Virus record (IMG/VR): IMGVR_UViG_3300022540_000584
Span: 1-56,903 of that record
Source: a virus
Taxonomy: Duplodnaviria > Caudoviricetes
Direction: 5' to 3' (one strand)
DNA: 56,903 nt
Shown: positions 479 through 54,255 of the stretch, piece by piece
Numbering within the stretch: position 1 is the stretch's first letter
Layout of the letters: every line of letters starts with the position of its first letter
The notes under the pieces: generated by a model
Databases searched by the model: none
What the model saw: the letters and a program-made list of their open reading frames with translations, nothing else
Told to the model about the DNA's origin: nothing
Position numbers and translations under genes: made by a program

Positions 479-969
479 TGGCTTCAGGTGATACGTTATG
501 TGTATTCACGCCCTTGCATAATGAGCCGCCGGCATCCAATCCAATGACCTTGGATACAAGGAATGCACATCCGGTTCTAGATGCAGATGCCTCCACCAAC
601 GAGAGCGCCGTCTTCTCTGCCGTCATGCCCCGCAACTACGGCGGCGGCGGCGTCACGGCGTATCACCACTACGCCATGTCATCGGCGACGGCTAACACTG
701 TAGATCAGGACGGCTCCTTTGAGCGTATTGGGGACCAGCAACAGGACATCGACTCTGATGGCTTTGCAGCAGTGCAAAGCGTAGACAATATCACAGTGCC
801 AGGTACAAGTGGCCTAGTAGACATCGTCGCTATCACTTTCACTAACGGCGCACAGATGGATTCCATCGCAGTTGGCGAGGGATTTCGATACAAAGCCACG
901 CGTGATGCCGTCAATGATGACGCAACGGGAGATATGGAACTACTCTTAGTAGAGCTCAAGGAGACCTAA
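478..969 (+). CDS. Beta-sandwich virion/fibre-associated protein
   Basis: GGAGGTG RBS; beta-rich; resembles the C-terminal domain of 21429..22385. Confidence 0.65.
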   Translation: MASGDTLCVFTPLHNEPPASNPMTLDTRNAHPVLDADASTNESAVFSAVMPRNYGGGGVTAYHHYAMSSATANTVDQDGSFERIGDQQQDIDSDGFAAVQSVDNITVPGTSGLVDIVAITFTNGAQMDSIAVGEGFRYKATRDAVNDDATGDMELLLVELKET

Positions 970-972
970 CCG

Positions 973-2694
973 GTGGCCCGTCACTTCGCCTCTGGTTCAA
1001 GTGAATATCTGGAGATCGACACCCCTGTCGTTACTGCTGCACCATTTTCGGTAAGCATGTGGTGCTACAACCTGTCATACGCATGGCAGGTTCCGTTCTG
1101 GCTCGGCGACAAGGACCTGGACAACAACGAATACTGGCGATTACTGCTCTACAGTGACGGCTCGTCAGCAAACTGGACCGCGCGCGCCTCAGCAGCTCAA
1201 AGCACCGCCACCACGACGGCGGGTTTTAGCCTGAATACCTGGTATCACCTCCTGGTCGTGGAAGCAGCATCGAACAGCCGGGCAATCTATCTCAATGGAG
1301 GAAACAAGGGCACAAACTCCGGTTCCCGCTCGCCCACCGGGGTAGATCGAACGAGCATAGCGCGCACGGGAGACAGCACTCCTGGCGAGTATTTCAACGG
1401 CTACGTGACTGAAGTCGCTGTATGGGACACGGCCCTGGGTGATGCAGATGCGACTATCCTGGCCAACTATTTCTCACCATTGTTTATCAAGCCGCAAAGC
1501 CTGGTGTCCTATTGGTCCCTGATCCGAGACGAGGACCAGGATAGGATTGGCGGCCACGACATGACGGCCTATAATACGCCGAGCATCGCGGCGCATCCGC
1601 CGATGATCTACCCGGCACCGCCGCGTATCTGGCACGTGGCAGGAGGCGTGGCTGCCCTTGCCGCATCGGTATCTGATTCTATAGCGGCTACAGAAAGCAC
1701 GGCGGCAATTATCTCAACGGCATTGGCCAATGTCTCTGAGAATGTAACAGCAGCGGAATCTGTCATGCTGGCAATCGCCAATGCTCAGGCCGGCGCCAGT
1801 GACAATGTAAGTGTAGCAGAGAGCACAGCGGCGAATATTATCGCCGCCACCACACGCAGTGTTAGTGTTAGTGATGAGGCGGCTCTATCTGAATCTACAA
1901 TAGTCGCCGTAAGTACGCCGGCGATTGGCGTATCTGATAATGCATCCATTGCAGAGAGTGTCATCATAGCAGTAGTCATTGCACCGGCAGTGCAAGATAC
2001 TGTTTCCATTTCCGAGAACGTATCTCTGGCAATCTCAACTGTACAAGCCGACGCAAGTGATAATGTTTCAATCGCTGAGAGCGTGTCAGTTAGTGTTGCC
2101 GAGGTGGGCGCTTACAGCGTCAATATAAGTGAAACTGTCTCATTAACCGAATCTGTGGCCACCGCTACAGAGGCACTGGCCGCCGGTGTATCTGACAATA
2201 TATCGGTCAGCGAAAGCGTGACGGTCTACGTCGCCGTGGCCGGTGCGATGAACATCAGCGTGAGTGAAGTCGTCTCGTTATCTGAGAACGCGATCACGGC
2301 CACAGATACGCTGGTGATGAGTGTATCTGATTCTGTTTCAATCACCGAAACAGTTTTGCCTACATGGTCACTAGATGTTTCGGTGAGTGAGGCTATTGGC
2401 GTAGCAGAGGATGTTGACGCCGATCCGTTGCAGATAGCAGCCTCGGCATTAGATAATGTCACGCTCACGGAGAGTGTGTCAATCGGCGGCCTGCTTGACT
2501 ATTCCGTTACGGTAACTGAGGCTGTGGCAATCACTGAATTGATATCGGTAACGCTGCCAGGCAGGCTAGTAGATGTCGATATTTCCGATGCGGTAGTTTA
2601 CGGCGTTTTGATAACAGATGAGGCGGTCTATGGCGTTTCAATAGTCGATGAGATAGTCTACGGTGTTTCAATTACGGATGTGTCTAGAATATAA
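973..2694 (+). CDS. LamG/concanavalin A-like lectin domain plus ~14 Ser/Val-rich repeats (fibre-like)
   Basis: LamG motifs (NTWYHL, IYLNG, FNGYVTEVAVWDTAL) followed by repeated xVSDxVSxxES units. Confidence 0.8.
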   Translation: MARHFASGSSEYLEIDTPVVTAAPFSVSMWCYNLSYAWQVPFWLGDKDLDNNEYWRLLLYSDGSSANWTARASAAQSTATTTAGFSLNTWYHLLVVEAASNSRAIYLNGGNKGTNSGSRSPTGVDRTSIARTGDSTPGEYFNGYVTEVAVWDTALGDADATILANYFSPLFIKPQSLVSYWSLIRDEDQDRIGGHDMTAYNTPSIAAHPPMIYPAPPRIWHVAGGVAALAASVSDSIAATESTAAIISTALANVSENVTAAESVMLAIANAQAGASDNVSVAESTAANIIAATTRSVSVSDEAALSESTIVAVSTPAIGVSDNASIAESVIIAVVIAPAVQDTVSISENVSLAISTVQADASDNVSIAESVSVSVAEVGAYSVNISETVSLTESVATATEALAAGVSDNISVSESVTVYVAVAGAMNISVSEVVSLSENAITATDTLVMSVSDSVSITETVLPTWSLDVSVSEAIGVAEDVDADPLQIAASALDNVTLTESVSIGGLLDYSVTVTEAVAITELISVTLPGRLVDVDISDAVVYGVLITDEAVYGVSIVDEIVYGVSITDVSRI

Positions 2695-2712: not shown

Positions 2713-3195
2713 ATGCAAGCGCAGGCACAAAAGGTGGTAGAGCAAACAGTTGGGATACGCGGAATGTTTCGTATCCATCTCATGAAGAACGGACAATTGG
2801 TGGGCGACTCGGGCTGGGTGGGAAACACAATAGTCAATCTGGGTTTCAATCAATATCTGGTTAGTTTGATTGGGGCCATCGCCGGAAGCAAACAGGTAAC
2901 GCACATGGCCCTGGGCACGGGCTCACAGCCCGGCGCGGCAGACACAAGCTTGCAGGGCGAAACGGACAAGCGGACGACCATCACGGCGGCCACGTCCTCG
3001 GCCAGCAAGACCTGCCGATTCACGGCAACGTTTGGCAGTTCGGACAGTTTCGTGACCGCTACACGTAACATCTCTAACGTTGGATTGTTCAACACGTCGA
3101 GCGGCGGCACGATCTTCTCTGGTAACACGTTCGCGTCTAGTTCGTGTGCCACAAATCAGGACGTCAATGTAACTTACGATATTATCATGTCGTGA
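2713..3195 (+). CDS. Small beta-rich structural protein (tail-collar/fibre N-terminal-like)
   Basis: AGGAGG RBS; NTIVNLG...MALGTG...DTSLQGE...VGLF pattern typical of phage fibre-attachment domains. Confidence 0.65.
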   Translation: MQAQAQKVVEQTVGIRGMFRIHLMKNGQLVGDSGWVGNTIVNLGFNQYLVSLIGAIAGSKQVTHMALGTGSQPGAADTSLQGETDKRTTITAATSSASKTCRFTATFGSSDSFVTATRNISNVGLFNTSSGGTIFSGNTFASSSCATNQDVNVTYDIIMS

Positions 3196-3707: not shown

Positions 3708-4590
3708 AGACATCCAGTCTGAACTAACCCAACTTCGTGAGCGCCTGGGCGAGTTAGAGCGTAAGGCAGGCGATCGCTATCGCGGGCCGCTTCTCAAAGA
3801 GCCACCGATCCGTCCCTACCGTACTATCATTAAGGACAGCGGAGATCCGGGCTATGTCAACCGGCTATTGATTGGCACGGCCACCACTGGCTTGGTACGT
3901 GTGGAGTGGGTGACGGGCCGATATGGTCAGGTCATCCCGCCGAATTGGAGTATGGTTCAGATGCTTCAATATCTCAATGCCTATATCCCGCTACGTTACC
4001 AGGTGGCCGATGCGCAGAATTTAATAGTCCGCGAGGCGGTCAAGGGTGATTTTGAATGGCTTCTGTTAATTGAGCATGATGTAATATTGCCGCCCGATAC
4101 GTTCAAGCGGTTGGATGATTACATTCGCGAGGCTCAGACGCCGGTTGTGAGCGGACTGTATTACACCCGTCACCGCCCTAGCGTCCCGCTAGTTTATCGG
4201 GGCCGTGGCACAAGTTTCTATGACGACTGGGAGTTCGGCGACTTGGTTTGGTGTGATGGCGTGCCGACCGGCTGTGTGCTCATACATTGTGCAATCCTGC
4301 GCGCAATGTGGGAAGATAGCGAGGGATATCTAATCCAGCATCCTGACGGAAGGCGCGATCTGACGCGCAAGGTATTCAACACGCCACGTGCCACCTGGTT
4401 CGATCCTGAGACGGAACAGTTCAATGTCACATCTGGCACAAGTGACCTGGCCTGGTGCACCCGTGTGATGGAGGGTGACTATCTGACAAAGGCAGGCTGG
4501 GACGAGCATCAGGCAATGGAGTTTCCATTCTTGGTGGACACGAATATCTTTTGTAAACATATTGATATGGACGGTACACAATACCCATGA
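3700..4590 (+). CDS. Glycosyltransferase, GT-A fold (family 2-like)
   Basis: AQNLIV...WLLLIEHD (DxD variant), VVSGLY, GVPTGCVLI, SDLAWC, VDTNIFCKH. Confidence 0.8.
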   Translation: MSEDIQSELTQLRERLGELERKAGDRYRGPLLKEPPIRPYRTIIKDSGDPGYVNRLLIGTATTGLVRVEWVTGRYGQVIPPNWSMVQMLQYLNAYIPLRYQVADAQNLIVREAVKGDFEWLLLIEHDVILPPDTFKRLDDYIREAQTPVVSGLYYTRHRPSVPLVYRGRGTSFYDDWEFGDLVWCDGVPTGCVLIHCAILRAMWEDSEGYLIQHPDGRRDLTRKVFNTPRATWFDPETEQFNVTSGTSDLAWCTRVMEGDYLTKAGWDEHQAMEFPFLVDTNIFCKHIDMDGTQYP

Positions 4591-4703
4591 ATGATGGACA
4601 GAAAAAGCGCAAACGCAAACGCAAGAAGCTGAAGAAGCCACCGGCGCTAGGCATCAAGGTGTCTGATGCGGTGATAACGCAGGACAAGGTAGGCAATGGC
4701 TAA
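4587..4703 (+). CDS. 38-aa basic peptide
   Basis: ATGA overlap with GT stop, overlaps next start; MNDGQKKRKRKRKKLKKPPALGIKVSDAVITQDKVGNG. Confidence 0.5.
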   Translation: MNDGQKKRKRKRKKLKKPPALGIKVSDAVITQDKVGNG

Positions 4704-4992
4704 TACTTATGACATAGGAGATGTCGTTCGTTGCTCCGCTGCGTTTACCGATGCCGACGGCGCAGCTGCCGACCCGACTACCCTCACCTTTCGCTGGCAG
4801 ACGCCGGCGGGCGTGGAGGCCAGCTACGTCTACGGCACTGATGATGAGCTGGTCAAGGACGGCACTGGCAATTATCACGTAGACTTGACGATCGATAACG
4901 ATGGCGTCTGGTATCATAGGTTCGAGGGCACCGGTACGAATGTAGCAGCGGCGGAGAGTTACTTTGTCATCCAGCAGTCGGAGTTTTATTAG
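4696..4992 (+). CDS. Ig-like small virion protein (BppU-like)
   Basis: YDIGDVV...DPT...TGNYHVD...GVWYHRFEGTG beta-sandwich pattern common in phages. Confidence 0.65.
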   Translation: MANTYDIGDVVRCSAAFTDADGAAADPTTLTFRWQTPAGVEASYVYGTDDELVKDGTGNYHVDLTIDNDGVWYHRFEGTGTNVAAAESYFVIQQSEFY

Positions 4993-6936: not shown

Positions 6937-8469
6937 ATGGGCGTGAGACAATGGATTGACAGGCAGATAGCCGGGATGGGCTATGCCAAGGCGGATGATC
7001 GGGGCAGCAGCGTATCTGTTTCCACGATACTGCGAGGCGAGGCTCCGCGCTTTGGGCCGCTGGACGTGCCGACGATGGACGACGAGGCCCAGCAGCGAAC
7101 GGAACGGCGGGCCGTCACGTCGCCGTGGGCCTTCTCGGACGCGCAATTGATCACGCGTGAATTCTCGCGCGCCGATTTCTACGTCGAGGAACAGGGGAGC
7201 GACGGCAAATGGGCGCGGGTAGAGGGGCACGAATATGAGACGTTGCAATCCCGCCCCAACCCCGACAGCCGCTTCATGGATCGCTCATTCGTGCTGCAAT
7301 ATACCGCCTGGTGGCTGCTGGTGCGCGGCGAGGCATACTGGTGGCAGGTGGAGGACAACGCTGGCGGCTTGATGCAGCTCCTGCCCATTCCTGCCAGTCG
7401 CATGAGGCCGATACCGGATCCGACGAAGTACATCGCGGGCTTCCTCTACACCCCGCGCCATGGACAGAAGCCAGAGCCCATCCCTGTCGAGAAGACGTGT
7501 TATTTCCGCACGCCGAACATCTTCGACTATCATCGTGGCTTGTCGGCGCTGTCGGCGGCGAAGCTGGAATTGGAGACAGATCATTCAGCGGCGACTTGGA
7601 ACAGGGATACTTTCATAAAAGAGGCCTCCCTGCGTCTCCTGTTGGGTCTGCCGAAAGAAATGGGGAGACGCGATTATGAGACGCGCAAAACTGAACTGGA
7701 GGAGTTGCTGGCCGAGAAGGGCCTGCGATACATCATCTCCCGCGCTGGCGACTTGACGGCGACGGTGCTGGATTCAACTCACAAGGACCTGGAGTACATG
7801 GAGGGGCGCATCCAGAACCGCGAGGCGATAGACCGTGTCTTTGGCGTCCCCGCCGGCTTCTGGGCGAAGGAAGCAAGCAGGGCCAACACCGAGTCGGCCA
7901 GGGCCACGCTCATCGAGTTCACCGTGTACCCGATGCACGTCGCAACAGCCGAAGCCATAACTTCACAGATCATCATACCGCGCTGGGGCGATGGCCTGCG
8001 CGGCAAGTTCGAGGACATTCGCCCGCGCGACCGGAAGCTGCTGGTCGTGGAGCGGCGGCAATACTGGCAGGTCAAGACGGTGGACGAGGCGCGGAAAGAT
8101 TTGGGCCTCGTAGAACTGGATGACGCACTGCTCGGCAACACGCTCGTCCCGCTGGCGACGAAGCCCGCGCAGGCAGGCAGCGGCCTACCGTTCATGTCCA
8201 TGCCGACGAAGGCCGAGCAAGACCGCTCGTGCCGTGAAGACCTGCGCCGCTGGCAGTCGGTGGCACTGCGGCGGCTGGGTAAGGGTGAGCAACCCGGCGG
8301 CTACGACTTCGTGAGCGAGCACATCCCGGCAGATGCGGCAGCAAACGTCAGGGCATTGCTGGTGGATGCCAGCACGAGTGAGGAGGTCAAGGCCATCTTC
8401 GCGGCCACGTTTCAAGATACTGAAACAGGTCACGATCACCGACGGCTCGACTGGGCGTCCTATCCGTGA
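6937..8469 (+). CDS. Portal protein (HK97 family)
   Basis: LLVRGEAYW, GLSAL, IDRVFGVP, SRAN, TVDEARKDLGL. Confidence 0.95.
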   Translation: MGVRQWIDRQIAGMGYAKADDRGSSVSVSTILRGEAPRFGPLDVPTMDDEAQQRTERRAVTSPWAFSDAQLITREFSRADFYVEEQGSDGKWARVEGHEYETLQSRPNPDSRFMDRSFVLQYTAWWLLVRGEAYWWQVEDNAGGLMQLLPIPASRMRPIPDPTKYIAGFLYTPRHGQKPEPIPVEKTCYFRTPNIFDYHRGLSALSAAKLELETDHSAATWNRDTFIKEASLRLLLGLPKEMGRRDYETRKTELEELLAEKGLRYIISRAGDLTATVLDSTHKDLEYMEGRIQNREAIDRVFGVPAGFWAKEASRANTESARATLIEFTVYPMHVATAEAITSQIIIPRWGDGLRGKFEDIRPRDRKLLVVERRQYWQVKTVDEARKDLGLVELDDALLGNTLVPLATKPAQAGSGLPFMSMPTKAEQDRSCREDLRRWQSVALRRLGKGEQPGGYDFVSEHIPADAAANVRALLVDASTSEEVKAIFAATFQDTETGHDHRRLDWASYP

Positions 8470-9316
8470 AACGAGGGATGGGTTGAAAGACCCATCGGGC
8501 GCGGCGAAGGACAAAGCCGAACGGGAGTGGGAAGCAGCACTTTTAAAATACTGGCGTGAGCAACGGGAACGAATAAAGAAGCGGCTCGCGCCCGGGATAC
8601 CAAAGAGCCGCAAGGCCATCGGCGACTTGCCCAAGCGGCTGGATGCCGACTTCTGGCGCAACGAGGATGAAGAGTTGATGGCGGTGCTCGTGCCGCTGTT
8701 CACCGCCGCCGCTACGGGTGGCATCACGATACTGGCCGCCACGGTCGAGGCCGAGTTTGGCATAGTAGTCGATTGGACGCTGGCAAACGCCGAAGCGATA
8801 GAGTGGGCGCGGAAGCATGCCGCCGAACTGGTGAAGGGCGTCAACAAGTCCACGAAGGAGACGTTGCGCCAAGTCATCTCTGCCTGGCTCGATACGCCAG
8901 GCTCCACGATGAATGACCTATTCAGGCAGATCGGGATAATCGAGGAGATACCGGGCAAGTTCGTGTTCAGCGCGGCGCGGGCAAAGATGATCGGCGTGAC
9001 AGAAGTAACGAACAGTTATCAGGCCGGACACGAAGCAGGATATGAGGCGGCGGGCTTTCCCTCTACGGCATTTGGGCCGACGGCTCATCCGAACGGAAGA
9101 TGTTGGACTAATGCCGATGTATTGCCGAACAATGAATTCGTGATCGTGTGGCGGACGAACCGTGACAGCTTGGTATGCACGCGACCACTGGCGACACCGT
9201 GGGGCGAGGTCGCGGGCTGTGCGGCGCTGGAAAACGTGATAGTCTCTGAGGGGCCGTGGCTGGGCTGGAATTTTAGAGACGCCGCGCGGGAAGCGAGGGC
9301 GAGGGAGAGGGGATAG
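8411..9316 (+). CDS. Head morphogenesis protein (Mu gpF/SPP1 gp7-like)
   Basis: RAKMIGVTEVT, AHPNGRC motif, position after portal; start unclear (frameshift from portal or TTG at 8483). Confidence 0.8.
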   Translation, partial: FKILKQVTITDGSTGRPIRETRDGLKDPSGAAKDKAEREWEAALLKYWREQRERIKKRLAPGIPKSRKAIGDLPKRLDADFWRNEDEELMAVLVPLFTAAATGGITILAATVEAEFGIVVDWTLANAEAIEWARKHAAELVKGVNKSTKETLRQVISAWLDTPGSTMNDLFRQIGIIEEIPGKFVFSAARAKMIGVTEVTNSYQAGHEAGYEAAGFPSTAFGPTAHPNGRCWTNADVLPNNEFVIVWRTNRDSLVCTRPLATPWGEVAGCAALENVIVSEGPWLGWNFRDAAREARARERG

Positions 9317-9318
9317 CA

Positions 9319-9585
9319 ATGGGCAAAAGAGCAGTCCAAGTATCTGGTGAACTCTGGCAACAGATATGCACCGTTGGGTGGACCGGCAACAGGCTGGAGT
9401 GCATTGAGGGCTTGCCGGAAGGGGTGACTTTCCACAGCGCCTTTTATATTCCCTCGGTGTGCCTGGGGACGCATATACTTACGTTTGTTTTTGAGCATCC
9501 CGACTGGCCGAAGCTTGAACTAGGCGAGGAGATACCGATGATTGAAGTAGTCTGGAAACAGACATACGATGACCTGGGATTGTAA
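9319..9585 (+). CDS. Hypothetical protein
   Basis: RBS plus ORF filling intergenic space. Confidence 0.7.
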   Translation: MGKRAVQVSGELWQQICTVGWTGNRLECIEGLPEGVTFHSAFYIPSVCLGTHILTFVFEHPDWPKLELGEEIPMIEVVWKQTYDDLGL

Positions 9586-50283: not shown

Positions 50284-50683
50284 TTGCTATCCATGACTGC
50301 ATCTACAGCATTCCAAAACCGGTTATGCGGCCATTCCGGATCATGTTCATCTATGAGGTCATCGCGCATCGCCCGCGCCTTCTCCCACGCCGCCATGTGC
50401 CAGAAGCAGCAGTGTATCATTGCGGCCTTGTGGACAGGGTCGGATTGCATCTGGATGTCCTTGATGATCATCTTTTTCTCCTTTTTTTGCTAGTTCGGTC
50501 ACCGTCTCTCGGTCGCCGTCACGTCGGCGCAATTGCCGGATGAACTTATACGTTACTGCTGGCTTAACCGCTATTGCTCTCCCTCCAACCTCCCCGGTGG
50601 CGCTTGCGTATCTGCCACCGGCAGACGGGCTCCCGTCGGGGCGGCTGCCGCGCGTCGATAGCGCGGTGGCGAGGGGCGGGCTA

Positions 50684-51127
50684 CTATGGGAACACCCGCG
50701 CAAACGCTTCCTCGGCCGTCGTGTCATAGACGCTGGTGCTCCAGGTTGCCCGGTGCACCCGGCCGCAAAACGCCTCGCTGTTCGCTATCCCCACCGGCGT
50801 CATGTCGGCGAGATAAGGGTTGAGCTCGCCGCCCAGCACTTCGGGCACCGGGACGTTATAGCGCCTGGCGCAGGCTTCTGCCGCTGCTATCATTACGGCA
50901 CGGGAGATGCGGCGATGCGTGCCGATGTATTCGTTGAGATACTCGCCGCCTTTGAGGTGTGCAGTTTTATTGGCTACTTCCGTTTCCGTTGGGCCGTCTG
51001 TCCAGATGATGTCAACGGATGAGCCCATGCTGAAGCGTTTCACCCGCACCGAGAACTTGGCATTTGGGTACTCTGCTTTGAGAACTTTGCGGACTTCTTT
51101 TGCTGATACCGTTGCGTCTTTATACAT
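50684..51127 (-). CDS. LPD29-like domain protein
   Basis: AKEVRKVLKAEYPNAKFSVR...SVDIIWTDGPT. Confidence 0.75.
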   Translation of the reverse strand: MYKDATVSAKEVRKVLKAEYPNAKFSVRVKRFSMGSSVDIIWTDGPTETEVANKTAHLKGGEYLNEYIGTHRRISRAVMIAAAEACARRYNVPVPEVLGGELNPYLADMTPVGIANSEAFCGRVHRATWSTSVYDTTAEEAFARVFP

Positions 51128-51550
51128 TACTCTCCTCCGTTCCTGCGCCAGCGCGAGCGCGCGGGGCTGCGCTGACCATGGCATCAAATTAGTCTATTAT
51201 CTACGAGGAAGCCATTGCGCCGTAGTAAATCAGCATCTCCCTTCACGCCAATGGCATATTGCCCATCCTGCTGATGAAATATGTAGTAGCCTGTTGGCTT
51301 CCTAGCCACGTTAGTATCTACCTCAACCATCACGGCCAGGTCTCTATCTAAAGCGCCAAGTGCTACTCGCTCACTGAGTATTAAAGTATTCACTGTTCTC
51401 TCCTTTTCAATTGGCTTGAATTTACCCTCAGTCCCTCCTGGCCGCCTCGGAGTATTACAGCGATCCTCCGACTACTCTCCGACTTTCGCCGTTTTTGATG
51501 TCGCTGTCGAGATAGCGGCCAGCAGGGGCCGAAGCCCGCTGCCTGCGCGT

Positions 51551-51706
51551 TTATGCGCTGTATTCGCAGCCAATTTCCTCCCATTCGGCGATGAGCTCAT
51601 TTAGGCCCATCACGTCACCGTCACCGTCGTTGAGCCAATCTTCGCAATCCTGAATGTTCCCGCTAGTGCGTGCTACAATTTCCTGTGCCTTTTCTTGATT
51701 TGTCAT
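51551..51706 (-). CDS. Small acidic protein (51 aa)
   Basis: AAAAGGAG RBS; MTNQEKAQEIVARTSGNIQDCEDWLNDGDGDVMGLNELIAEWEEIGCEYSA. Confidence 0.6.
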   Translation of the reverse strand: MTNQEKAQEIVARTSGNIQDCEDWLNDGDGDVMGLNELIAEWEEIGCEYSA

Positions 51707-51720
51707 TTTATTCTCCTTTT

Positions 51721-51767
51721 GGGTTTCTCATCTTGGTTATCAAAGCAGGACTTCTGCCCGCTGACCC
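51721..51767 (-). ncRNA. Hammerhead-ribozyme-like element, copy 1
   Basis: GGGUC-AGCGGG/CCUGCU stem-UUGAUAA-N9-GAAACCC. Confidence 0.5.
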
Positions 51768-51801
51768 TGCGCGTTTTCGCCAGACGCGCTAACTGGTGGG
51801 C

Positions 51802-52173
51802 CTAGCAGTCACTCATCCTGTCATAGCAATTCACGCAGGAACTGCCATGTGAAGCGTTCATAACCTCGACTGCGTTGAAAACGGTATGCCCGCAGTCCAG
51901 TTTCCGCCCGCTGGGATAGTCAGGTTGTCGTGTCTTGCGCGGCTTCCTGGCATCAGCATCGCGGATTTTAGCGTACCAATACTGTCCGTCATATTTGATT
52001 TCCTTGCCTGCTGCCAGTGCGTCGAATATGCCCTGCGCCGTCCTGGGTTCGCGTTTCTGTATAGGTGCGAGCCACTGTTCCACTTCTACGGCGAGTCCAA
52101 TGAATCTGTCTATCCTGACCTGTTTAGTCTCGTCAGCCCAACTACCATTGCTCAACTGTCGTTGGAATTTCAT
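51802..52173 (-). CDS. First early gene, C-terminal Cys/His motif
   Basis: AAAAGGAGAG RBS; LDCGH...SCVNCYD. Confidence 0.75.
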   Translation of the reverse strand: MKFQRQLSNGSWADETKQVRIDRFIGLAVEVEQWLAPIQKREPRTAQGIFDALAAGKEIKYDGQYWYAKIRDADARKPRKTRQPDYPSGRKLDCGHTVFNAVEVMNASHGSSCVNCYDRMSDC

Positions 52174-52190
52174 TTCTCTTCTCTCCTTTT

Positions 52191-52237
52191 GGGTTTCTCG
52201 TCCTGGTTATCAAAGCGGGACTCTTACCCGCCGACCC
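52191..52237 (-). ncRNA. Hammerhead-ribozyme-like element, copy 2
   Basis: GGGUC-GGCGGG/CCCGCU stem-UUGAUAA-N9-GAAACCC. Confidence 0.5.
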
Positions 52238-52430
52238 TGCCCGTCCGCCTCCGCCGGCGCTTGGGCTATTTTCCGATCCTCTGAGCCTTTAACCTCGGTT
52301 AGTCTCTTCCGCTCCGCTTGCGGTACTATTCGCTGTGTGCTGTTCTTTGTCTACCGCTGCGCTTTCGGCTAGTTCCCTAGTCTTTGGCTCTTTGGTCTTC
52401 TTGCTTTTTAATGTTCCTTAATCTGCTATT

Positions 52431-52459
52431 ATTATACCATACCGCGCGAGTAAAGTCAA
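52431..52459 (-). promoter_or_regulatory. Strong early sigma70 promoter
   Basis: TTGACT-N17-TATAAT with extended TG. Confidence 0.85.
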
Positions 52460-52463
52460 TAGG

Positions 52464-52600
52464 TTAAGTTAGAATTGGGTTTTGTTTTTGTGAAGGTTTT
52501 GCAACACAAATGTTCTTTTTTACATTTCGATAGTCGATCATCTTTGTATGCTTCTTTGAATTACATCGCTTACATAATGGTTGGCAGTTTTTGATGAGAA
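52464..52600 (-). pseudogene. HNH endonuclease C-terminal remnant
   Basis: IKNCQPLCKRCNSKKHTKMIDYR with no intact N-terminus. Confidence 0.6.
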
Positions 52601-53149
52601 TCACGTTTCCCTCGATGCGCTGAGGACTTCCTCTAAATCTGCGATTTTGATAAGTGTTTCTTCTGCCCAATAAACCATCCCCGATCTTCCCCAGTTTGGA
52701 CTATGATGATTTATGCACTCTTTTAAGCGAGCAAGATTCCCGCCATATAACCCCGTGGGGCCAGCCTTGTCGGGCGGCGTATCCTTTGCCCTTCCTTCCC
52801 GCTGTAGGAATAATAGCCAGATGGGCCAGGGTGATAATTCTTGGACTCGTAGATAATCCTCATAGTGTCTGAGATCGATGCCCGTTACCCAGCGGCTCGA
52901 TATTCTATGCCAACTGAACGCGCTTTTGTGCTTTGCCTCAATCCACCATACCTTGTCACTTTTACAGCCAAAGGCAAGCAAGTCGGGTGCAATGAGATTG
53001 CTTTGCACAGTGAATATTTGCGGCCCCTTCCCCTCACTAATTTCCTTCTCATAGACTGGCAGGACAGAGTGGCCTTTTCGTTTCAGCCAGTTCGCTATTA
53101 GACTTTCTCCCGCCTTGCCAAAGGCGAGTTGGCGCTCAAAGGTATTCAT
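52601..53149 (-). CDS. PD-(D/E)XK nuclease-like protein
   Basis: GKAGE, APDLL, WIEAKHK; coupled to methyltransferase. Confidence 0.75.
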   Translation of the reverse strand: MNTFERQLAFGKAGESLIANWLKRKGHSVLPVYEKEISEGKGPQIFTVQSNLIAPDLLAFGCKSDKVWWIEAKHKSAFSWHRISSRWVTGIDLRHYEDYLRVQELSPWPIWLLFLQREGRAKDTPPDKAGPTGLYGGNLARLKECINHHSPNWGRSGMVYWAEETLIKIADLEEVLSASRET

Positions 53150-54059
53150 CTACTCGCTCCATTATTGGCCCCAACTCCTTAAAGATATTTATGAAGCCGA
53201 TCCTATTGCTACCCAGGTAGACGATGACGGAGGGGAATGGTGCGGAGTGTGGCGAGTTCTGGAATTGCAACCGCCCGCGCACCATGCATATCGGGTGCGC
53301 ATAGAGCGGCTGGAACCAGCGCGTATCCGTGCGTCCTGGCAGCAAGGCGATAGCTTCTCTTAGTTCGCCGCTTTCGTATTTGGAGACTAAGGCATCAATC
53401 CATTGTGGTATCTCTGAGCCATAAGGCGGATTCATATATACTGCGCCGTGCCATATTTGCGTTAATCCATCATCTTGCTTGGTATACAAGAAGGTGGCTG
53501 GAACCGCCGGGTTCGTCTTGCTGTTAGAGCAAGGATCGGTGTCAATTGTGCCGTTGAATAATTCCAGCGTCAAATCTATGATGCGCTGAGGGGTATACCA
53601 TTCGGGACTTTCACTGCTACCCATCACAGTCATGGTACCCAATCTTTTTGCTATTCGTAGTAAGCCAGCACTAGTCAGTTCTTTTCCCTCTGTCTTTGTT
53701 TTAGTTACATATTGTTCAAATCTTTCCGGGGGCACCTTGATTTCCAATCCCCAATGATGAGATTGATCTTTGGTGAGGCCAATATCTTTCAACGTCAACA
53801 TCGCATCATGCGATCTTGATCCACCGTGTGAAGCCAGCTCGCCCCTTTCGCGCATCTCTTGTAGTATCTTGCCCGCCCGCCGCTCAGCACGCAACTTCAC
53901 CTCGGCAGCATCGTTCTGCATCTCTAGGCCGTACTCTGCCAGACGAAAGCATTGCCGCATTGCCTCTGCCTGATTGCGGATGTTTTTGACTTCGGCTATC
54001 GTCTTTGCCTCTGCCAGTGCGGTTTCAATAGCGTTCAGTTGAACTAATGCGTTTGACAT
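53136..54059 (-). CDS. Phage DNA N6-adenine methyltransferase
   Basis: EWYTP, DTDPC, DDGL, MNPPY, RTDTRWF, APFPS. Confidence 0.92.
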   Translation of the reverse strand: MSNALVQLNAIETALAEAKTIAEVKNIRNQAEAMRQCFRLAEYGLEMQNDAAEVKLRAERRAGKILQEMRERGELASHGGSRSHDAMLTLKDIGLTKDQSHHWGLEIKVPPERFEQYVTKTKTEGKELTSAGLLRIAKRLGTMTVMGSSESPEWYTPQRIIDLTLELFNGTIDTDPCSNSKTNPAVPATFLYTKQDDGLTQIWHGAVYMNPPYGSEIPQWIDALVSKYESGELREAIALLPGRTDTRWFQPLYAHPICMVRGRLQFQNSPHSAPFPSVIVYLGSNRIGFINIFKELGPIMERVDEYL

Positions 54060-54191: not shown

Positions 54192-54255
54192 AGTATATAC
54201 CCGTTTAGGTAATTTGTCAAGCAGACTTGACAAAGCCTATCAAATTTGGTACAAT
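54192..54255. promoter_or_regulatory. Back-to-back divergent promoters separating the two genome arms
   Basis: Minus TTGACA-N17-TATACT (54220-54192); plus TTGACA-N17-TACAAT (54227-54255). Confidence 0.85.

Follow-up and report, generated by a model that had tools for sequence, protein, structure and literature searches.

Do the two repeated RNA elements ahead of a pair of short open reading frames (ORFs) in the viral record IMGVR_UViG_3300022540_000584 act as self-cleaving ribozymes? We analyzed the whole stretch (the window), which is the complete IMG/VR virus record of a tailed phage (56.9 kb, rated 69% complete). It contains one direct-repeat family, with 63-nt copies at 51712-51774 and 52182-52244 that are 87% identical (8 mismatches). 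The original prediction, made from the letters alone, had reported this repeat and its minus-strand layout and had read each copy as a stem-II-less or conditionally activated hammerhead ribozyme. The repeat search bore out both the repeat and the layout, and the interpretation as a whole is partly supported. Judged by sequence, the repeats are type III hammerheads of a loop-defined subclass that is common in viral contigs. On balance we lean towards reading them as variant, probably attenuated, self-cleaving hammerheads.

Layout of the two copies

Each copy, read on the minus strand, consists of GGGUC, a 6-bp stem closed by a 7-nt loop, UUGAUAA, 9 nt, GAAACCC and AAAAGGAG, in this order. A 34-nt degenerate pattern of the 3' half matched the window only at the two copies and had no match in 100 shuffles. 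The parts are listed below, all on the minus strand; both copies are full-length matches of the covariance model R2 described in the next section.

52191..52237: hammerhead variant, copy A
52237-52234 and 52194-52191: copy A stem III strands, GGGU and ACCC
52233: copy A cut site C17, predicted cleavage 3' of C17
52232-52227 and 52219-52214: copy A stem I, GGCGGG and CCCGCU, with loop 1 UAAGAGU at 52226-52220
52213-52207: copy A core UUGAUAA (U3 to A9)
52206-52198: copy A stem II remnant CCAGGACGA, then G12-A14 at 52197-52195
51721..51767: hammerhead variant, copy B
51767-51764 and 51724-51721: copy B stem III strands, GGGU and ACCC
51763: copy B cut site C17, predicted cleavage 3' of C17
51762-51757 and 51749-51744: copy B stem I, AGCGGG and CCUGCU, with loop 1 CAGAAGU at 51756-51750
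51743-51737: copy B core UUGAUAA
51736-51728: copy B stem II remnant CCAAGAUGA, then G12-A14 at 51727-51725

Stems I and III follow each other in the type III order, with a one-nt cut-site strand, a looped stem I and an open stem III. The minimum free energy (MFE) folds of the 55-nt elements contain stem III (GGGU/ACCC) and stem I. Both copies carry U4, G5, A6, A9, G12, A13, A14, the A15.1-U16.1 pair and C17, so that the GAA strand, the 15.1-16.1 pair and the H17 of a type III hammerhead are present in each. The core strand is U3 U4 G5 A6 U7 A8 A9 in both, which does not match the consensus C3 U4 G5 A6 N7 G8 A9 letter for letter. Cleavage is predicted 3' of C52233 and C51763, the same two positions that had been proposed from the letters. 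The claim that the stem I differences between the copies preserve pairing stands, but they do so by one-sided changes (G.U to A-U and G-C to G.U) and not by double compensation.

Membership in the hammerhead family

We scanned viral contigs for the class with loop 1 fixed and with positions 3, 7, 8 and stem II left free. This gave at least 117 viral loci (L229-L342), with 73 distinct sequences among the matches listed. Tests for U16.1, H17, stem I and stem III were passed by 60 of these 73; the remaining 13 are chance matches and members misread by the fixed-register parser. The subclass is marked by loop 1 GGYARRAGUCC (GGUAARAGUCC) and by a 2-bp stem II, which reads GC-AAGA-GC, or GGC-AUGA-GCC after one extra nt.

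Model R2 was built from 31 of the 60 listed members, those with a 5-nt stem I 3' strand, C3, G8 and GC-N4-GC. All 31 came from other viral contigs, and none from the window or its close relatives L002, L003 and L004. On the 56.9-kb window R2 gave only two matches, both full length, and these were the two repeats (copy A: 37.7 bits, E=1.1e-8; copy B: 35.4 bits, E=5e-8). The alignment lays CC-AGGA-c-GA of the window onto GC-AAGA-GC of the class and flags as non-standard only the pair 10.1-11.1 and the outermost stem III pair. The class-specific model thus finds homology of the repeats to canonical type III members. A second, independent model (R1) drew on 8 non-canonical relatives (types B and d) and excluded canonical copies, copies of the window form (type A, below) and two hairpin-inserted copies. 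With R1 the two repeats ranked first (25.9 bits, E=1.3e-4) and second (E=0.016) in the window.

The close relatives L002, L003 and L004 came from IMG/VR pattern scans, L011 and L012 from a protein search, and more distant relatives from scans with the conserved upstream motif. All relatives have one cassette in common: a stable structure, an element framed by G-U-C...GAAAC and a ribosome-binding site, placed between short, mostly unrelated ORFs. In L004 the element at 9372-9428 reads GGGUC-GCGGG..CCCGC-CUGAUGA-GUUC..GAAC-GAAACCC, a letter-perfect type III hammerhead with a 4-bp stem II. It aligned over its full length with Rfam RF00008 (31.8 bits, E=0.0032). This is the orthologous site of copy B, behind the same pseudoknot and before the orthologue of the same 51-aa ORF. 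Canonical cores are also found in L064 and L084 (Rfam 35.4 and 37.2 bits) in L053 (two copies) and, with U4C, in L054 and L002. The non-canonical relatives have 1-2 extra nt, or a hairpin, before UGA, and L156 has G3/C8. Given the R2 and R1 matches and the canonical element at the orthologous L004 site, we regard the homology of both elements to hammerheads, the family originally proposed, as not in doubt.

The same alignment bears on the alternative that had been offered with the hammerhead, a boxB hairpin plus a boxA-like site for the loading of an antitermination complex onto RNA polymerase. In its favor, the promoter-proximal leader has a hairpin with CUUUGAUAAC behind it, and this is the order of boxB and boxA in rRNA operons. 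However, the supposed boxA is the strand that reads C-UGAUGA-G in canonical class members, and the same columns form the C-UGAUGA-GC core both there and at the orthologous L004 site. The motif reads CCUUGAUAAC or UCUUGAUAAC in L002, L003 and L004, and other cassette types at the same leader position have no boxA-like string. Around the second copy, which stands between two short ORFs, the search for terminator-like sites found none. We consider antitermination very improbable here.

The core pair 3-8 and the stem II closing pair

Compared with the class, the window form differs at two pairs. The core pair 3-8 is U-A in place of C-G, and the closing pair of stem II, 10.1-11.1, is C.A in place of G-C. 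Among the 60 members listed, positions 3/8 are C/G in 50, U/A in 6 and C/A in 4. The stretch from A9 to G12 has G...C in 42, one extra nt and then G...C in 12, and C...A in 6. The six members with U/A are the six with C...A: two in the window, two in L002, one in L003 and one in L004. We call this distinct variant type A. Pattern scans of viral contigs and genome contigs found no type A copies beyond L002-L004, the rest being chance matches, and identified no host.

The stem II region of the window reads CC-ARGA-YGA and that of the class GC-AAGA-GC. The window copies have one more loop 2 nt, and the Watson-Crick pairs left are C10.2-G11.2 plus an A-U in copy B. Since the region aligns with GC-AAGA-GC of the class, it is a degenerate minimal stem II (C.A, C-G and a loop) and not an unrelated spacer; the "unpaired 9-nt linker" and "stem-II-less" of the original prediction were overstated.

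The nearest canonical relative is L053:2356-2405, GAGGU-U-GGCCGG-UAAGAGU-CCGGCC-CUGAUGA-GC-AAGA-GC-GAA-ACCUC. It has loop 1 (UAAGAGU) and loop 2 (AAGA) in common with the window element. From this relative, type A as found in L003 and L004 differs at four core-adjacent positions, which make up the two pairs 3/8 and 10.1/11.1. We also considered that type A arose from an L004-like element by loss of 7 nt; MAFFT aligns AGAUGAGAA in both. This origin is less parsimonious and less favored, because four substitutions from an L053-like form suffice and L053 has both loops alike.

Perreault et al. 2011 (PMC3088659) describe precedents for these deviations taken singly. U3-A8 is a natural covariation with in vitro activity, in line with the claim that this swap is a known variant. 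Stem II is often 2 bp, and is 1 bp in one active case that relies on a loop-loop pseudoknot. One active natural ribozyme has U.U, a mismatch, at 10.1-11.1. Thus each single type A deviation has a similar active precedent among the core variants in that paper, whereas type A combines the deviations, its mismatch is C.A and not U.U, and no loop-loop pseudoknot was seen. We consider it likely that type A would cleave more slowly than the canonical members.

Pairing of the stem II remnant (CCAGG) with CCUGG of the upstream pseudoknot was considered and rejected. The leader copies have no such pseudoknot, and copy B and L003 lose the complementarity.

Across different cores, particular types of loop 1 go together with particular types of loop 2. 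L156 carries two hammerhead-like copies at 1113-1163 and 1475-1527 (minus strand) with the same unusual core strand AUGUGAUCA (G3/C8 and two extra nt). Both loop 1 and loop 2 differ between these copies, as though exchanged as a matched pair.

Conservation, covariation and the possibility of a relic

We compared the leader-site element of the window with that of L004, and 42/46 positions are identical. The pseudoknot is identical at 27/29 positions and the 93 nt of leader adjoining the element at 64/95. The DNA of the 51-aa ORF is identical at 104/156 positions, with 23/52 at third codon positions. The six type A copies vary at 11/47 columns. These fall in the outer stem III pair, in stem I and in the two loops, and the 15 columns that form or adjoin the core are invariant. 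A hypergeometric estimate for this invariant core is about 0.007, which is not a clean probability because the six copies are related and not independent. The core was not fixed by the search, since all type A copies would have been found through the pseudoknot scan or through their neighbors.

Stems I and III covary across the relatives. In an alignment of the relatives that was fitted to the model, 94.2% of the cells of these stems are paired and 9/11 pairs show double changes, with 0/500 shuffles as high. In the ungapped alignment of the 31 canonical class members, 97.0% of the cells are paired and the covariation score is 0.473, compared with 0.136 for shuffles and at most 0.137 for slid-partner controls.

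The main rival is that the elements are inactive relics, hammerhead-derived but no longer cleaving, and kept either as structured spacers in the 5' untranslated regions, for instance ones that leave the ribosome-binding site unpaired, or as conserved joints where early genes pass between related phages. We consider this a real but less probable explanation. C.A at 10.1-11.1 is unique to type A among the 60 members listed, and stem II is almost gone. Uncompensated or truncated class copies exist elsewhere (L263, L287, L297, L321, L286 and the leader copy of L011/L012). Different genes lie between the same cassettes in the window, L002, L003 and L004, which fits recombination joints, and both window copies are type A, so the window has no canonical hammerhead. 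Neutral decay, however, predicts the third-codon-position rate of 23/52, and the element shows 42/46. Variable columns are absent from the core, and the change at 3-8 is a compensatory one. Directly 5' of the cleavage site, type A copies retain the hairpin or pseudoknot as canonical copies do. This conservation argues against a neutral relic, yet it is not proof of catalysis.

In another explanation, which we hold to be unlikely, the element has been exapted: a phage or host protein would bind the hammerhead-derived fold and set translation or stability downstream, or switch cleavage on. Conservation reaches loop 1, the core strand and the stem II remnant and exceeds what a plain hairpin spacer needs, and the element lies 3-4 nt from the ribosome-binding site. 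Against this, there is no candidate protein, and the neighboring small ORFs have no family match. Conservation falls exactly on the catalytic positions of the hammerhead, and catalysis is the simpler explanation for that.

Several observations weigh against self-cleavage by the window copies. A type III stem II has no mispair at 10.1-11.1, and both copies have C.A there. This is the best conserved stem pair of hammerheads; 54/60 members listed close stem II with G-C, and only the six type A copies have C.A. The search rules of PMC3088659 discard any mispair at this pair. Stem II is down to one or two pairs, and no Watson-Crick pairing between loop 1 and loop 2 that might compensate was seen in type A. 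The elements fold no more stably than shuffled sequences (z from -0.44 to +0.79), and other folds come close to them in energy. Type A has six copies, about 90% alike, in four related phages, which makes the conservation argument phylogenetically shallow; recent exchange between phages could mimic selection. The class contains probable dead copies, namely four valid members with uncompensated C3/A8 and L286, which has no GUC, and L011/L012 carry a truncated leader copy. With such copies in the class, persistence alone is no proof of activity. The sequencing runs that contain this stretch gave DNA contigs only, with no RNA run among them.

The Rfam hammerhead models likewise count against it. 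They gave no match at E<=10 on 50500-53500 or at E<=1 on the whole window, and neither copy reaches the gathering threshold of RF00008 (48.5 bits). This is weak evidence of low power, because the models miss most canonical class members as well: canonical relatives score 25.9-37.2 bits or are missed altogether. Among the canonical-core elements searched only L004, L064, L084 and L303 were matched, all below the gathering score.

A small hairpin, YUUG-AUAAC-CARG, appears in the MFE folds. We rejected it as the functional structure. It tolerates changes by way of wobbles and overlaps the conserved core strand, and a comparable hairpin is predicted in the canonical L004 element too. We took it as a competing fold.

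Promoter, genes and cassette parts

The other parts of the locus around the two copies, all on the minus strand, are as follows.

52431..52459: sigma-70-type promoter, TTGACT at 52459-52454, 17-nt spacer with extended TG, TATAAT at 52436-52431
52238..52424: leader, 187 nt, purine-rich, A74 G58 C40 U15 (8% U), no ATG, GTG or TTG
52239..52266: leader hairpin, GCCC-AAG-CGCC-GGCGGA-GGCG-GAC-GGGC, RNAfold -15.0 kcal/mol
52183..52188: Shine-Dalgarno AAGGAG of the 123-aa ORF
52173..51802: 123-aa ORF, ATG start at 52173
51769..51796: predicted H-type pseudoknot, 5 nt after the stop of the 123-aa ORF and 1 nt before copy B stem III
51796-51793 and 51783-51780: pseudoknot S1, CCAG and CUGG
51789-51785 and 51773-51769: pseudoknot S2, GCGCG and CGCGC
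51713..51718: Shine-Dalgarno AAGGAG of the 51-aa ORF
51706..51551: 51-aa ORF, ATG start at 51706
51405..51550: third intergenic module, with a 3' remnant of the pseudoknot, ACGCGCAGG, then a long stable structure and no hammerhead core

The promoter matches the consensus at 11/12 hexamer positions, with TG preceding the -10 hexamer, and is strong; transcription would start near 52424. The leaders of L003 and L004 are likewise preceded by similar promoters. Both copies end 3 nt before AAGGAG, and the cassette has 3-4 nt at this place. The repeats thus lie upstream of two ribosome-binding sites, as the original prediction had said. Its wording "first two early-gene" sites calls for a caveat: further upstream, the same strand carries two more genes, which have a promoter of their own (54220..54192). 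The phage has its portal and capsid genes on the plus strand, whereas a gene for a DnaB-type helicase is on the minus strand, so that the repeats are near the head of a leftward non-structural gene block. The genes behind them may be early. The 51-aa ORF has an orthologue at L004:9445-9600 (63% identity, E=3e-23). A family search with the small ORFs beside the repeats gave no match. Searches of the window against annotated phage records (blastn, INPHARED) also gave no match, and ARAGORN called no tRNA or tmRNA in the window, L002, L003 or L004.

Over its 3' 93 nt the leader shares 85% identity with L002 and L054 and 67% with L004. The leader hairpin ends 1 nt 5' of copy A stem III. L002, L004, L044 and L054 have this hairpin before their leader hammerheads too, with changes that preserve pairing. 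A plain stable hairpin replaces the pseudoknot also in L053 and L156.

The pseudoknot was read from strand order, as the folding tools applied cannot predict pseudoknots. Its motif is CCAG-N2-3-GCGCG-N1-2-CUGG-N2-AAAA-CGCGC, located 1-3 nt 5' of the hammerheads that follow an ORF, and in the window its loop 3 is A-rich (CGAAAA). The 28-nt motif is also found upstream of hammerheads in L002, L003, L004, L044, L053, L060, L064, L084 and L156. A pattern scan of metagenomes gave at least 117 loci, mostly chance matches in GC-rich DNA, and viral contigs were also scanned. Among the matches listed from both scans, 24 (3 of them duplicates) have the upstream CCAG, and 14 of these 24 (12 without duplicates) have a hammerhead-like element directly after the motif. 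S1 is UGGU/ACCA in L064 in place of CCAG/CUGG. S2 shows a matched one-pair deletion in L003 (GCGC/GCGC) and a G.U in L011/L012. Support from these changes for the predicted pairing is thin but consistent.

The third module folds at -58.6 kcal/mol (z=-3.1), and 0/200 shuffles were as stable. The homologous regions L004 9608-9752 and L003 6985-7125 (minus strand) fold strongly too, and L044 has the module at about 800-920 (minus strand). The long-range stem of the module covaries, from CUGGCCGC/GCGGCCAG in the window to CUGGCCCC/GGGGCCAG in L003. The interior of the module in L003 and L044 resembles a tRNA acceptor/T-arm minihelix (GGUUCGACUCC), where ARAGORN calls no tRNA.

Proposed processing of the transcript

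The analysis above shows homology, architecture, conservation and covariation, whereas cleavage, its rate and the role of the 5' structures are inferred. In the transcript that starts from the promoter at 52459-52431, each element would fold co-transcriptionally and cut 3' of C52233 and C51763. Cleavage at copy A would free a leader RNA of about 190 nt that is U-poor and purine-rich. The second product would be a monocistronic message of the 123-aa ORF, with a 5'-OH hairpin at one end and the 3' pseudoknot at the other. The third would be the downstream message, starting with the 51-aa ORF. On each downstream product, a 5'-OH and the stem I hairpin would form the start, about 45 nt ahead of the ribosome-binding site. 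Each upstream product would carry a 2',3'-cyclic phosphate at its end, directly behind the hairpin or the pseudoknot. The 5' structure may cap the 3' end against 3' exonucleases, or it may insulate the folding of the ribozyme from the ORF.

A more specific scheme is speculative, and we would give it a minor chance. Type A would be an active hammerhead in which an A+.C wobble closes a stem II of only one or two pairs, with slow cleavage that is tunable by pH or Mg2+. It would work within a three-part processing cassette (an H-type pseudoknot or hairpin as 3'-end cap, ribozyme and ribosome-binding site) that times and insulates each early gene and frees a leader RNA with a role of its own.

In some members of the subclass the ribosome-binding site is part of the ribozyme. 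In L233 at 3040-3090 (minus strand), and also in L249, L253, L256 and L266, the stem III 3' strand ACGGAG(G) includes the ribosome-binding site of the next gene (GAAAC-GGAGG in L233). An uncleaved ribozyme would therefore hide that site, and cleavage in these members could unmask it. In contrast, the ribosome-binding sites of the window lie just outside stem III.

Comparison with known hammerheads

The window copies and the type III hammerheads of phages and prophages (RF00008; PMC3088659) have the same order of parts: stem III, N-U-H, stem I, a 7-nt core strand, stem II, GAAA and stem III. All catalytic nucleotides are present, and a short stem II is typical of the class. They differ in C.A at 10.1-11.1, in U-A at 3-8 and in the lack of an Rfam model score. 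The fixed cassette is a further difference: a hairpin or pseudoknot stands 5' of the element, and a ribosome-binding site follows after 3-4 nt. The same paper describes prophages in which single genes are flanked by several hammerheads, and in the window, too, several copies of one orientation flank single genes in one transcript.

Saltern hammerheads carry 2a/2b insertions next to C3 and need very high Mg2+ for activity, according to PMC3088659. Types B, d and e (L002, L003, L044, L053, L060, L084, L156), with 1-2 extra nt or a hairpin between stem I and UGA, are similar to these, whereas the window copies have no insertion.

Other members of the subclass adjoin Pistol (L249) and Twister-P5 (L289) ribozymes that pass the Rfam thresholds. 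In engineered insulators of the RiboJ type, a hammerhead between promoter and ribosome-binding site trims a variable leader and leaves a message that starts with a hairpin. The window arrangement differs in that it is natural, is repeated between genes, and has an upstream fragment capped by its own structure.

It has been known since 2011 that hammerheads occur between phage genes. This locus is a compact test case, with one promoter, two ribozyme copies, a fixed spacing to the ribosome-binding site and a dedicated 5' structure. Should type A prove to cleave, nature would have replaced the best conserved stem pair of the hammerhead by C.A, and there would be a natural slow variant to set against the canonical copies that sister phages have at the same sites. 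Should it prove inactive, the locus is a clear case of a ribozyme retained by selection for another role. The Rfam hammerhead models miss most of a large phage subclass with a 2-bp stem II, which matters for the annotation of viral contigs.

Other observations

L011 and L012 have about 700 nt without an ORF between two early genes (about 4200-4890, plus strand). Long-range complementary arms (CUCUUUGACAGAUAGAUGAC ... GUCAUCUAUCUGUCAAAGAG) enclose about 250 nt there, and the gap may be a large structured RNA; an Rfam search of it gave no match.

Just ahead of its leader promoter, L004 has several copies of CTACTGAG / CTCAGTAG (8420-8545, plus strand). These copies look like repressor operator sites.

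In the window, strong promoter-like sites stand back to back at 54192-54255: the minus strand has TTGACA-17-TATACT and the plus strand TTGACA-17-TACAAT. This region is probably the divergent control region of the phage.

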